A stretch of DNA of 64,000 nucleotides from an uncultured Acidobacteriota bacterium (GTDB lineage: Bacteria > Acidobacteriota > Terriglobia > Terriglobales > Acidobacteriaceae): the NCBI GenBank assembly GCA_963703735.1, contig CAVPFM010000007.1:52723-116722 (forward strand). Reading direction: 5' to 3'. A program made the position numbers and the translations under genes. Shown one piece after another: positions 40,837-48,787 of this stretch; position 1 is the first letter of the stretch; the number at the start of each line of letters is the position of its first letter. The notes beneath the pieces are model-generated. The model did no database searches, had not been told where the DNA came from, and saw only the letters and a list, made by a program, of their open reading frames with translations.

Positions 40837-42273
40837 ATGACGAACCAACTTCCCCCTCGCGTAGTGATCGTCGGCGCTGGCTTCGGAGGCCTTAACGCAG
40901 CCCAGGTGCTGGCCAAAGCGCGCGTCCGCGTCACCGTCATCGATCGTAGGAATTACCACACGTTTCAGCCGCTGCTCTACCAGGTCGCCACCGCCGGACT
41001 CTCGCCCGGAGAAATCGCCGCGCCCATCCGTTCAATTCTTCGCTCAGATAAGAATATTGAAGTCCTCATGGCCGAGGTCACCGGATTCGATCTCAACCGC
41101 CGCGTCGTCCTCACTCCCGACGGCGAAATTCCCTATGCCTATCTGATCGTCGCCGCGGGAGCCGGACATTCTTATTTCGGACACGATGAGTGGGAACCCT
41201 ATGCTCCTGGGCTTAAGACCATCGAAGACGCCCTCGAGATCCGCCGCCGCGTATTACTCGCTTTCGAGTTGGCCGAGCGACAGGCGGCAGCCGGAGAAAC
41301 CAGCTCCCAGCTCAACTTTCTCGTCGTTGGTGGAGGCCCTACCGGAGTCGAACTAGCCGGCACGCTCGCGGAAATCAGCCGCCACGCTCTCGCCCACGAA
41401 TTTCGCACCATCGACCCCGCGCGCACCCACATCTTGTTGATCGAAGGGGGTCCGCGGATCCTCCCCGCGTACGCGGAAGATCTATCCCGCAGCGCCGAGC
41501 AACAACTGAATCACCTCGGGGTCGAGGTGCGCACCTCAACCATGGTCACGCAGGTCGAAGCCGGCGCCGTATATTTCGGCAGCACGCGCTTTCCCGCAAC
41601 CGTGATCCTCTGGGCCGCCGGAGTTGCAGCCTCCCCTCTCGGCAAGAAGTTGGGAGTCGCTGTCGACCGCGCCGGACGCGTCCCTGTGCAACCGGATTTG
41701 ACGATTCCCGGGCATCCCGAAGTCTTTGTCATCGGCGATCTCGCCGCAGCGAAAGACGAACAGGGCAAATTGCTCCCCGGCGTAGCTCCGGTCGCCATGC
41801 AGCAAGGCAACTACGTAGCAAAGCTAATTCGCAAAGAAGTGGAGTCACGCGAGGGTGCCCCACCCTTGTCGCTTTCTTTGCGAGAGAAGCCTGCCCGGAG
41901 CGCGACCGAGCGCAGCGAGGGCAAGTCGAAGGGTGGGGATTTTGACTCCGACCGTTCCAAGTTCCACTACTGGGATAAAGGCAGCCTGGCCACGATCGGC
42001 CGCGCCGCAGCAGTCGCTCAATTCGGAAAAATCCACATCTCCGGATTCCTCGCGTGGCTTTCCTGGCTCTTCATTCACATCCTGTTCCTGATCGGCTTCC
42101 GTAACCGCGTGCTCGTTTTCATTCAGTGGGCCTGGTCGTACGTCACCTACGAACGCGGCGCGAGACTGATCACCGGCAGCACCGACTTGCCGGGATGGAG
42201 ACCAACTCTTCCAACTCCCAGTGGCGCTCAAGTCTCCGCGCCTCAAGAAATTCAAACCAACACCCGCAAATAG
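40837..42273 (+). CDS. ndh: Type II NADH dehydrogenase (NDH-2) carrying an in-frame repeat-derived insertion
   Basis: 478 aa. Two Rossmann motifs (VVIVGAGFGGL, FLVVGGGPTGVE), GDLAA and FHYWDKGSLATIGR. About 35-40 extra residues (EGAPPLSLSLREKPARSATERSEGKSKGGDFDSDRS) are encoded by repeat 41847-41949. Confidence 0.88.
   Translation: MTNQLPPRVVIVGAGFGGLNAAQVLAKARVRVTVIDRRNYHTFQPLLYQVATAGLSPGEIAAPIRSILRSDKNIEVLMAEVTGFDLNRRVVLTPDGEIPYAYLIVAAGAGHSYFGHDEWEPYAPGLKTIEDALEIRRRVLLAFELAERQAAAGETSSQLNFLVVGGGPTGVELAGTLAEISRHALAHEFRTIDPARTHILLIEGGPRILPAYAEDLSRSAEQQLNHLGVEVRTSTMVTQVEAGAVYFGSTRFPATVILWAAGVAASPLGKKLGVAVDRAGRVPVQPDLTIPGHPEVFVIGDLAAAKDEQGKLLPGVAPVAMQQGNYVAKLIRKEVESREGAPPLSLSLREKPARSATERSEGKSKGGDFDSDRSKFHYWDKGSLATIGRAAAVAQFGKIHISGFLAWLSWLFIHILFLIGFRNRVLVFIQWAWSYVTYERGARLITGSTDLPGWRPTLPTPSGAQVSAPQEIQTNTRK
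41847..41949. repeat. Palindromic interspersed element (CCCCACCCTT ... AAGGGTGGGG family), copy A, inside the ndh coding sequence
   Basis: ACGCGAGGGTGCCCCACCCTT...(61 nt)...AAGGGTGGGGATTTTGACTCC. Arms at 41858-41867 and 41929-41938. The termini are shared with copy B. Confidence 0.8.
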
Positions 42274-42340
42274 GTGGACAATAGGATTGGACGCGGTGCC
42301 TCGCTCAACACCAAGTCGGCCGCGGCTTTCATGCATCTTT

Positions 42341-42365
42341 GTCATCCCGAGAGAAGCGAAGGGCC
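42341..42365 (+). repeat. GTCATYCCGA...GCGAAGGG family repeat (copy 2)
   Basis: GTCATCCCGAgagaAGCGAAGGGcc, ending 1 nt before the nfeD ATG. Confidence 0.5.
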
Positions 42366-42366
42366 T

Positions 42367-43710
42367 ATGCACTTCCTACCCAAATTCAATAATCTAATTC
42401 GCGCACTACTCTGGCTAGTGGCAGCGGTCGCATTCGCCGCACCCGCCTCCGCCCAGGTCCTCAAAATCGTTGTCGACGACACCATCCAGCCCATCAGCGC
42501 CGAATACATCTCCCGCGCCATTGATCAGGCCCACCGCTCCAACGCGCAAGCCGTATTGATTGAGATGAACACACCCGGCGGCCTCGTCAGCTCCACTCGC
42601 GAAATCATTGAGAAAATCACCAGTTCCCCGGTGCCGGTGATCGTTTACGTAACTCCCACCGGTGGACATGCGGGCTCCGCCGGGATCTTCATACTTGAGT
42701 CCGCGGATATTGCCGCCATGGCTCCCGGAACCGCCGCTGGAGCTGCTCATCCCGTAACTCTGATCGGCCCCGTCCAGGTGAAGCCCGACGATGAGATGAA
42801 GCAGAAAATCGAGAACGACACCGCCGCCCTGATGCGCTCCGTTGCCTCCAAGCGCGGACGCAATACCGACGCCGCCGAGAGCGCCGTGCGCGAATCGAAG
42901 TCTTTCACCGAGCAGGAAGCTCTCACCCAACATCTCATCGACTACGTCGCCAACCGTCGGGAAGATCTTTTCCGCCAGATGAGGGGAAAATCTTTCAAGC
43001 GCTTCAACGGTGAGACTGCAGCTCTCAACTTGACGGATCAGTCGATCCTTCCCTTTGAGATGACCGTCAAGGAGCGCGTTCTAGACGAACTGATGGACCC
43101 CAACGTCGCGTTCCTGATCCTCATCATCGGGGCGCTCGCCCTCTACGTCGAATTCAACCATCCGGGAGCCGTCATACCGGGAACGGTGGGAGTGGTCTTC
43201 ATCCTCGTCGCGGCCTTCGCGCTGAATCTTCTCCCTACACGCTTTGCCGCACTCATTCTGATTCTCGGAGCCTTCGCTCTCTTCGCCGCCGAAGCCAAAT
43301 TTGTTACTCACGGAGTTCTCACTGTCGGCGGCATCGCACTGCTCACTCTGGGTGGCCTGCTGCTCGTGGATTCCCCGATTCCTGAGATGCGCGTTCACCT
43401 GCTGACCGCGCTGGCAGTGAGCATTCCCTTCGGCATCATCACCGCGTTCCTGATGACGATTGCCTACCGGGCCCGCCGCAACAAGATCGTGACCGGAGAA
43501 CAGGGCCTGGTCGGTGAAACGGGAGTGGCGCAGACCGCGCTCGCGCCGCAGGGCAAGATCTTTGTCCACGGCGAACTATGGGACGCGATCGCTTCGACAA
43601 CTTTACCGGTAGGGCAGATCGTGGTAGTGCGCCAAATAGAGGGCCTGACGCTGCAAGTGGACCCGCTAGGCGCAACGCCAAACACAGATCCAGCCCCCGC
43701 AATTCTTTAA
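42367..43710 (+). CDS. nfeD: NfeD-family membrane-bound ClpP-class serine protease (long form)
   Basis: Start re-set to the ATG at 42367 (MHFLPKFNNLIRALLWLVAAVAFAAPASAQ signal peptide). ClpP-like domain (IEMNTPGGLV...GHAGSAGIFI). Four to five TM segments. C-terminal OB domain (GKIFVHGELWDA). Confidence 0.85.
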   Translation: MHFLPKFNNLIRALLWLVAAVAFAAPASAQVLKIVVDDTIQPISAEYISRAIDQAHRSNAQAVLIEMNTPGGLVSSTREIIEKITSSPVPVIVYVTPTGGHAGSAGIFILESADIAAMAPGTAAGAAHPVTLIGPVQVKPDDEMKQKIENDTAALMRSVASKRGRNTDAAESAVRESKSFTEQEALTQHLIDYVANRREDLFRQMRGKSFKRFNGETAALNLTDQSILPFEMTVKERVLDELMDPNVAFLILIIGALALYVEFNHPGAVIPGTVGVVFILVAAFALNLLPTRFAALILILGAFALFAAEAKFVTHGVLTVGGIALLTLGGLLLVDSPIPEMRVHLLTALAVSIPFGIITAFLMTIAYRARRNKIVTGEQGLVGETGVAQTALAPQGKIFVHGELWDAIASTTLPVGQIVVVRQIEGLTLQVDPLGATPNTDPAPAIL

Positions 43711-43718
43711 GAACAATG

Positions 43719-43776
43719 ACGCGAGGGTGCCCCACCCTTCTTGCGCCTTATGCGAGAGGGTGGGGAATTTGACTCC
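43719..43776. repeat. Palindromic element family, copy B
   Basis: ACGCGAGGGTGCCCCACCCTTcttgcgccttatgcgagAGGGTGGGGAATTTGACTCCC. Arms at 43730-43738 and 43757-43765. Intergenic, between convergent genes. Confidence 0.8.
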
Positions 43777-44624: not shown

Positions 44625-44660
44625 CACAAAAGAAAAAAGCCGCGACGAAAGTCGCAGCTC
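44625..44660 (-). terminator. Rho-independent terminator of pnp
   Basis: On the minus strand, GCUGCGAC-uuuc-GUCGCGGC (8-bp stem, 44639-44658) is followed by UUUUUUCUUUUG. It lies about 50 nt after the pnp stop. Confidence 0.7.
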
Positions 44661-44707
44661 TTTTCATGAAACGAGGTTTTAATCCGCGCGAATCCGTGAC
44701 AAAGAAG

Positions 44708-47155: not shown

Positions 47156-47514
47156 GAATTGATTTCCTTTGGAGTGCTTAGAGCCGTGAGCCTTGAGCTA
47201 GGAGCGAGCGGGCGCCACATCCTTCGCGGTTTTCGAAGGGTGAGGATGTTGACGTAAGGTAGGCACACCTCACCCGACATCACCCTGGTGTGGAGATAGG
47301 CTGCGCTTGAAAAACGCACGTGTGGAGATTTCCTCGATGCTGCCGTTTCACCAGAAACGGCGCTCAGAAATAGCCCCGGGAAAGAAAGTTTCAAGGTTTC
47401 GAGATTCTCAATGTTTCAAGGTTCCGTTGGAAACCTTGAAACGTTGTCACTTTGAAACCTGGATGGATGCCCGCCGGTCGACGTTGTCGAAGCGAAGGGA
47501 TTCCCGGGTCAAGA
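47156..47514 (-). promoter_or_regulatory. Structured rpsO-pnp intergenic leader (multiple hairpins)
   Basis: 359 nt. Hairpin GTTTCAAGGTTCC-gtt-GGAAACCTTGAAAC (47413-47442), with extra arm copies at 47388-47400 and 47452-47460. GCCGTTTC-acca-GAAACGGC at 47342-47361. GGGTGAGG/CCTCACCC at 47238-47275. Confidence 0.5.
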
Positions 47515-47891: not shown

Positions 47892-47950
47892 GGGGGGTGC
47901 CCCACCCTTCTTTCGCGTTCTTTGCGAAAGAGGGTGGGGATTCTGATTTT
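47892..47950. repeat. Palindromic element family, copy C
   Basis: GGGGTGCCCCACCCTTCTTTCGCgttctttGCGAAAGAGGGTGGGGATTCTGATTTT forms a stem of about 16 bp (47900-47916 / 47924-47939). Upstream of rpsO. Confidence 0.8.
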
Positions 47951-48753: not shown

Positions 48754-48787
48754 GCCCCCACCTTTGACGCTTTCGAATCGTGGGGGC
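48754..48787. repeat. Divergent palindromic element, copy D
   Basis: GCCCCCAC-ctttgacgctttcgaatc-GTGGGGGC, between convergent genes. Confidence 0.5.

Follow-up and report, generated by a model that had tools for sequence, protein, structure and literature searches.

Bacterial MITEs (transposable elements of the miniature inverted-repeat type), e.g. Correia/NEMIS, ERIC and Nezha, are usually 70-300 bp in size, and the palindromic elements of Rickettsia (RPEs) are roughly 100-150 bp long. Repetitive extragenic palindromic (REP) sequences are short stem-loops of 20-40 bp with a GTAG or CGTC tag; most follow coding regions and have unidirectional or convergent neighbours, and a minority lie inside genes. 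Among the hosts are uvrA and tRNA synthetase genes, and Acidobacteria-specific TIRYT transposases have been described, one of them associated in Koribacter with a family of repeats (Di Nocera et al. 2013; PMC3733652). RPEs were described by Ogata et al. (2000), as summarised in the same article (PMC3733652). Here we describe a REP-like hairpin repeat, common in Candidatus Sulfotelmatobacter and related Terriglobia genomes, of which one copy very likely lies in frame within ndh, the gene for the type II NADH:quinone oxidoreductase (NDH-2), of an uncultured Acidobacteriota bacterium (genome G000). The DNA analysed, hereafter the window, is a 64,000-nt stretch of contig CAVPFM010000007.1 (positions 52,723 to 116,722; assembly GCA_963703735.1). 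An in-frame palindromic element of this kind is RPE/REP-like, the phenomenon being already known from Rickettsia and REP-rich bacteria. The gene and the parts of the repeat copy are as follows (window positions).

40837..42273 (+): ndh, the host gene, encoding an NDH-2 of 478 aa (open reading frame (ORF) and translation).
41853..41949 (+): in-frame long-form hairpin repeat copy of 97 nt, predicted translation GAPPLSLSLREKPARSATERSEGKSKGGDFDS (covariance model R1, E=4e-11).
41853..41867 (+): head and left outer arm, GGGTGCCCCACCCTT, an exact family core, where the family boundary begins sharply.
41868..41886 (+): degenerate inner hairpin, GTCGC-TTTCTTT-GCGAGAG (compared with family copies and folded).
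41887..41928 (+): second module of 42 nt, the 'ERSE..SKG' variant of the GAGCCTGCCCTGAGCG.AGTCGAAGG unit (module census, DNA comparison).
41929..41949 (+): right outer arm and tail, AAGGGTGGGGATTTTGACTCC (family consensus, 3′ boundary).

The sequence, coordinates and translation of this segment are as the initial annotation gave them, and the similarity to other repeats that it had pointed out survives formal alignment and modelling. A covariance model trained on 57 other copies matched the ndh copy over positions 41850-41950, with the E value listed above, and the termini are common to the ndh copy and to an intergenic copy downstream (copy B, below), which match at 21/21 nt on the 5′ side and at 19/21 nt on the 3′ side. 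In the window, three occurrences of the 15-nt core GGGTGCCCCACCCTT were counted, versus 0.14 expected. With 93 nt between its arm ends, the ndh copy is the longest among the 77 two-armed copies of the genome. Its inner hairpin is chimeric, the left half being of the 'GTCGC' type and the right half of the 'GCGAG' type, and its second module, a distinct variant with the core CGAGCGCAGCGAG and the peptide 'ERSE..SKG', differs from the ndh copy of genome G163 by two small in-frame insertions of its own. The long form as it stands in the G000 gene folds no better than shuffled sequence (z=-0.98). Taken at the level of sequence, positions 41853-41949 are very likely a copy of a REP-like non-coding hairpin repeat, lying in frame in a permissive NDH-2 loop and predicted to be translated.

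The gene product has the Pfam domains Pyr_redox_2 and NDH2_C, and its closest solved relative is a mycobacterial NDH-2 (PDB 9mqy, E=4e-109), residues 8-337 of the query aligning with residues 13-350 of the chain and residues 372-447 with residues 355-430. Its AlphaFold model (58 input sequences; mean pLDDT 84, pTM 0.82) superposes on NDH-2 structures in Foldseek, with a TM-score of 0.79/0.85 for 9mqy, and both sequence and fold match those of an NDH-2, with two Rossmann-fold domains and a C-terminal membrane-anchor domain. Only a single NDH-2 of this type was matched in the G000 genome at E<=1e-30, which argues that the ndh gene works. Between the conserved KLIRKE and FHYWDKG segments, where an insert had been proposed, the protein has 34 residues in place of 4 in 9mqy. 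In the model, helix 317-338 is the last helix of the catalytic core and starts with APVAMQQG, which we take to be the equivalent of the AQxAxQ quinone-site motif; residues 339-382 are coil, with a mean pLDDT of ~50 in the ten-residue blocks spanning 341-370, and are followed by a three-stranded sheet (383-403) and helices 404-418 and 424-437, which we take as the membrane-anchor domain. The insert is thus modelled as a disordered surface loop at the junction of the catalytic core and the C-terminal membrane-anchor domain, in line with the new surface loop that had been suggested, and reading through the repeat would give ~32 extra disordered residues in the enzyme. The frame runs open across the copy, as expected for a coding region invaded without a break. 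Ribosomal bypass, splicing and an intein were rejected, the element lying in one stop-free open frame in every orthologue read at the site.

The family unit has a consensus of ~52 nt, GGGTGCCCCACCCTTGTCGCG-(T-rich loop)-CGCGACAGGGTGGGGATTTTGACTTT, made up of a head (GGGTG), an 8-bp G/C-rich outer stem, a variable inner stem, a T-rich loop and the tail ATTTTGACTTT. Head, outer stem and tail are conserved, and the inner stem varies between copies with matching changes on both sides (e.g. GTCGCG/CGCGAC, CTCGCG/CGCGAG and GTCCTCC/GGAGGAC). Information content rises sharply at GGGTGCC and drops after GATTTTGACTTT, while the flanks carry none; the six identical bases ACGCGA upstream of the ndh copy lie outside this consensus and may therefore be due to chance. 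The core GGGTGCCCCACCCTT was found 93 times in the 6.6-Mb genome (<=2 mismatches). The 77 two-armed copies, with both arms within 160 nt, comprise 66 short forms (43-56 nt), 10 long forms (71-79 nt) and the ndh copy, and the covariance model gave at least 117 matches, although, owing to misalignment of the variable inner stems by MAFFT, it retained just 6 base pairs and acts chiefly as a sequence profile. Folding of short forms gives ~-30 kcal/mol (z=-4 to -5). In the ten long forms between genes, the parts follow the same order as in the ndh copy, with the module GAGCCTGCCCTGAGCGCAGTCGAAGG ahead of the right arm. The second module, GAGCCTGCCCTGAGCG[A/C]AGTCGAAGGG, is present in ~40 copies in many hairpin contexts, which bears out the idea that the interior of the ndh copy contains a segment of a second repeat family. 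This module (GAGCCTGCCCTGAGCGAAGTCGAAGGG) was nested in the loops of several unrelated hairpin families (e.g. at C1:748243, C3:83446 and C12:126806) and looks like a separate small unit nesting in hairpins.

Further members of the family lie downstream of ndh in the window, starting just after a neighbouring gene that is probably part of the same operon.

42274..43710 (+): gene for an NfeD-like membrane protein, adjoining the ndh stop codon (Pfam NfeD1b_N, NfeD_membrane, NfeD).
43725..43776 (+): copy B, short form, in sense, 14 nt after the NfeD stop codon (arm census, model; fold -31.4 kcal/mol, z=-4.0).
47207..47257 (+): weak degenerate fourth copy, not listed in the initial annotation (arm census idx48; model E=0.0036).
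47895..47950 (+): copy C, short form (core, model; fold -36.1 kcal/mol, z=-4.0).

Two additional segments, C and D, had been likened to the ndh copy. The first is a member of the family, whereas D (48754-48787) was rejected as a generic hairpin recovered by neither the arm census nor the model. Rfam gave no match at gathering scores in the whole window and none at E<=1 around the insert, with chance matches only near copies B and C. Elsewhere in the genome, copies form local clusters at C1:775000-784000 and C1:823000-833000, with five copies in 9 kb, and several head-to-head pairs lie within ~100 nt (e.g. C2:16557/16687 and C11:468805/468883). When 100 genomes of the class were searched with the repeat model, matches were obtained in 10 of 11 genomes of the same family and in 9 of 11 genomes of one other family, the remaining genomes showing few or none.

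The ndh gene is not the only host. Stop-free frames spanning each copy were collected and then checked with Pfam for domains that lie on either side of the copy or are split by it, and in this way 10 of the 77 copies, i.e. ndh and nine others, were found in frame in conserved genes. The nine other hosts are:

a radical SAM protein (Pfam)
an Lhr helicase (Pfam)
KpsF, with the insert within the SIS domain
a prolyl oligopeptidase (Pfam)
a DUF255 thioredoxin-like protein (Pfam)
an FtsX-type permease (Pfam)
UvrA, with the insert in the interaction domain
GpsA, with the N-terminal domain split by the insert
GlyQ, with tRNA-synt_2e split by the insert

Read in all six frames, the consensus is open in five. 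Two further cases, one at a nucleoside hydrolase / amidohydrolase (idx17) and one upstream of an aldo-keto reductase (idx41), were ambiguous, and the spanning ORFs of idx12, 16, 42, 50 and 53 were rejected as Arg-rich nonsense. The ndh host gene stays intact with the element in its open frame. The copy in glyQ, the gene for the glycyl-tRNA synthetase alpha subunit, is in frame and antisense (G000:C5:184502-184556, locus L155; KDQNPRPVSPNNGETRTGHPEE), and at this site the element was present in ~9 of the 24 genus orthologues that could be read, long forms included.

Of 62 intergenic copies, 38 have unidirectional, 18 convergent and 6 divergent flanking genes, compared with 21% of intergenic regions genome-wide being divergent. 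Judged by the closest gene 3′ end, 36 are in sense and 17 antisense (p=0.013); sense copies lie at a median of 16.5 nt from the stop codon and antisense copies at a median of 51 nt. These census figures are approximate: gene positions came from a crude home-made gene caller, which missed ndh itself because a spurious minus-strand ORF overlaps it by 104 nt. The hairpin is strong, placement and orientation would suit a terminator and the tail reads A-UUUU-GAC-UUU; a terminator or 3′-stabiliser role for the copies after genes is plausible, as suggested by position and orientation only. In a simple consensus terminator scan, neither copy B nor copy C was called. A canonical intrinsic terminator was seen at window positions 44632-44665 (-), with a 15-bp stem and a T-run after it, a short way downstream of the PNPase gene. 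It does not belong to the repeat family, and its presence means that ordinary terminators also occur in the G000 genome.

Like REPs, the acidobacterial element is a short stem-loop with many copies per genome (77 two-armed copies and at least 117 by the model), mostly extragenic and 3′ of genes in unidirectional or convergent arrangement, with uvrA and tRNA synthetase genes as hosts in both cases and Y1/HUH transposase genes present in both. It differs in its consensus ends (GGGTGCCCC... and ...GGGGATTTTGACTTT), which have no GTAG or CGTC tag, in its unit length (52 nt, exceeding 20-40 bp), in its conserved asymmetric head and tail, and in that no transposase gene is flanked by exactly this family. 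The likeness to RPEs lies in interspersed palindromes that are intergenic and also in frame in many intact conserved genes, that are read through as extra surface segments and that are common to orthologues of related species. However, the sequences are probably unrelated, the phylum differs, the acidobacterial unit is much shorter (~52 nt, with the long form at 71-97 nt) and has a strong 3′-of-gene orientation bias, and the host lives free in soil and has a genome of 6.6 Mb as opposed to a reduced intracellular one; judging from phylum and unit length, homology is unlikely, so that the element can only be said to work like an RPE. With MITEs it shares the properties of small non-coding interspersed inverted-repeat elements that can be located in transcripts and occasionally in frame in genes, its arms being inverted repeats, but it shows no target-site duplication, has no parent insertion sequence (IS) with matching ends among the Y1_Tnp genes, and falls below the usual MITE size. 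The initial annotation had offered 'REP/MITE-like'; the REP-like half of this label fits a genome-wide hairpin repeat, whereas the MITE half does not, and because of the missing target-site duplication 'REP-like' is the better term.

With regard to mobility, no flank duplication of 2-5 nt exceeded the shuffled expectation at any offset, a lack which fits a Y1-type mechanism. The G000 genome has four matches to Y1_Tnp (IS200/IS605-type), and no IS with matching ends was found among these Y1_Tnp genes, none of the four being flanked by the ndh-type repeat family. One of them (C1:832168-832494) is flanked by inverted hairpins, GGGGCTGCCCCACACTTCGCG..CGAAGCGTGGGCACC, whose head is related to the ndh-type repeat and whose right arm is different. 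The whole arrangement, at C1:832028-832744 (locus L033), with the Y1_Tnp gene between inverted hairpin copies GGGGCTGCCCCACACTTCGCGATGTTCGAAGCGTGGGCACCA, makes up a TIRtron-like unit, and two other repeat copies adjoin it. The GGGGWSAS motif of published TIRYT ends was also considered and does not fit this repeat. Spread of the family via a hairpin-recognising HUH/Y1 transposase would be conceivable.

The ndh gene was found in 138 of 151 genomes of the genus, and 61 genus orthologues were read at the loop. The element was present in the same ndh loop in 27 of the 61 according to the model, with one more (G016, locus L003) recognisable by eye; in an unbiased first draw it was present in 4-5 of 21. 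The reading frame is invariably the same, giving G-A-P-P-[F/L]-S-R-x-x-R-[E/Q]-G-G-D-F-D, and in most cases the conserved R-P-x-F-H-Y-W follows immediately. L003, L011, L042 and L046 have long forms that include the ERSE module, L011, L039, L042 and L057 have two or three elements, and L015, L071 and L074 have decayed copies. In the neighbouring family the element was found in none of eight ndh orthologues, the loop there having 10 residues. Within the genus the loop is of variable length and rich in G, P, S and R. It also grows by microsatellite-like duplication, as seen in L056 (the ndh loop of G141), in which a tandem 12-nt expansion (GATGTGCATSCT x3) beside the element yields the peptide DVHADVHPDVHP. 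In L037 (ndh of G121) the match ends at residue 292 of a 338-aa open frame and the element-bearing loop is in another frame; this locus is either a frameshifted pseudogene or the product of an assembly error. The initial annotation had asked whether close orthologues carry the segment as an ancestral loop. The nearest orthologues are without it, and the shorter segments elsewhere are the repeat itself and not an unrelated ancestral loop. Occupation of the same site in many species of the genus, together with the nine other in-frame genes, means that the event is neither unique nor necessarily recent.

Inheritance of the ndh element between species is indicated by sister species having flanks and extensions in common (L004/L063, L002/L049, L048/L052 and L051/L056/L060), and turnover by the inner stem, which is GTCGCG..CGCGAC in L051 and CTCGCG..CGCGAG in L056 and L060 with a 3′ extension common to all three, as well as by the sisters L042 and L057, which differ in their second element, one being long and the other short. 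For the G000 copy itself we lean, with modest confidence, towards a remodelled descendant of an element that was earlier at the site in the genus and that was deleted in the three nearest relatives. This reading is supported by the ndh-specific module variant, since CTGAGCGAGCGCAGCGAG[T/C]CGAA is present without mismatch in ndh of four other species (G016, G017, G157 and G163) and nowhere in G000 outside ndh, and by a common 3′ junction, the element tail being followed by R-P/S-x-F as in other species. In addition, this junction reads AGCTCCCC-CGATCGGAACTCC in G046 (L036), possibly what is left of a head and a tail. Several points speak against descent and against the in-frame repeat reading more generally: all genomes analysed are metagenome-assembled genomes (MAGs); the nearest relatives G066, G046 and G091 have no recognisable element in ndh, G066 being the closest at 96% identity over 394 aligned columns; the remnant argument for G046 depends on ~20 nt that were aligned post hoc; resolution of the protein tree is weak inside a 49-row clade; and the hairpins beside the Y1 transposase gene belong to a different family, so that no mobilising enzyme is tied to the element.

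The same absence in the three nearest relatives could instead mean that they represent the empty site and that the G000 copy is a fresh, independent insertion at a hot spot, the loop or a resident copy repeatedly attracting elements, a possibility that we hold only tentatively. In a quick tree built without the loop, presence or absence of the element takes at least 12 changes; inner-stem subfamilies vary by clade; and besides the differing second elements of L042 and L057, tandem and nested copies were seen in G017, G155, G157 and G158, all of which speak for a hot spot. The module variant and the 3′ junction speak against it, and the copy is degenerate, with its chimeric inner stem and extra indels, which does not suggest youth. 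Moreover, third codon positions differ by 32-37% even for the closest relatives, so that there was time enough for the element to be lost.

The way in which the embedded elements change was compared with that of the surrounding gene. In alignment counts for sister pairs, the element differs at 5-19% of sites as compared with 20-34% of flanking third codon positions, and differences reach 47% in the rest of the loop, outside the element. Among 22 ndh-embedded short forms, pairwise identity by codon position is 0.80/0.83/0.84, versus 0.91/0.98/0.61 for the downstream ndh coding sequence, a contrast that is somewhat inflated because the sequences were chosen for recognisable arms. The flat codon-position identity suggests that the force keeping the element alike acts on nucleotides and not on amino acids, which would mean either that the many copies in the genome homogenise it or that the hairpin is under selection. 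It is unlikely, in our view, that the hairpin is under nucleotide-level constraint in coding sequence across species, acting as DNA or RNA, i.e. that it is kept in ndh and glyQ as a transcription or translation pause, an attenuator or a signal for RNA processing or stability. Apart from the flat identity, such a role would agree with an element diverging 2-3 times slower than flanking third positions next to a fast-changing non-element loop, and with the compensated inner-stem switch between L051 and L056/L060. Yet gene conversion or re-insertion from ~100 genomic copies yields the same pattern, the selection of sequences for arm likeness inflates the conservation, over half of the orthologues manage well with no element at the site, decayed copies are numerous, and the G000 long form does not fold better than shuffled sequence (see above). 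If the constraint were real, the hairpin might act between the catalytic and membrane-anchor halves as a pause or attenuator, or serve as a homing site for further copies, and the in-frame elements would be functional parts of genes and not tolerated passengers.

That the segment is an ordinary lineage-specific loop, resembling the repeat by chance or composition, can be set aside almost entirely, for even though the loop varies in length across the genus and is rich in G, P, S and R, the model score and the ends shared with copy B argue against it, both arms, tail and second module are all present in family order, and the outgroup loop has only 10 residues.

Most copies lie just after stop codons in sense, as REPs do, and about one in eight is in frame within a conserved gene, at a loop that tolerates it. 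The element may have spread through a transposase that recognises its hairpin, and conversion or re-insertion drawing on the genomic pool may keep the copies similar. The finding would extend Rickettsia-type selfish palindromes, translated in essential genes, to free-living, large-genome soil Acidobacteria (Candidatus Sulfotelmatobacter). The inserts inflate the number of 'lineage-specific loops' in alignments and yield spurious repeat-derived ORFs in MAG annotation. The parts most worth following up are the nucleotide-level conservation and the multi-species series, an unusually rich one in which a single enzyme loop is empty, single, double, triple or decayed across dozens of species, and which could be used to measure rates of gain, homogenisation and loss and could also reveal how new disordered loops arise in proteins.

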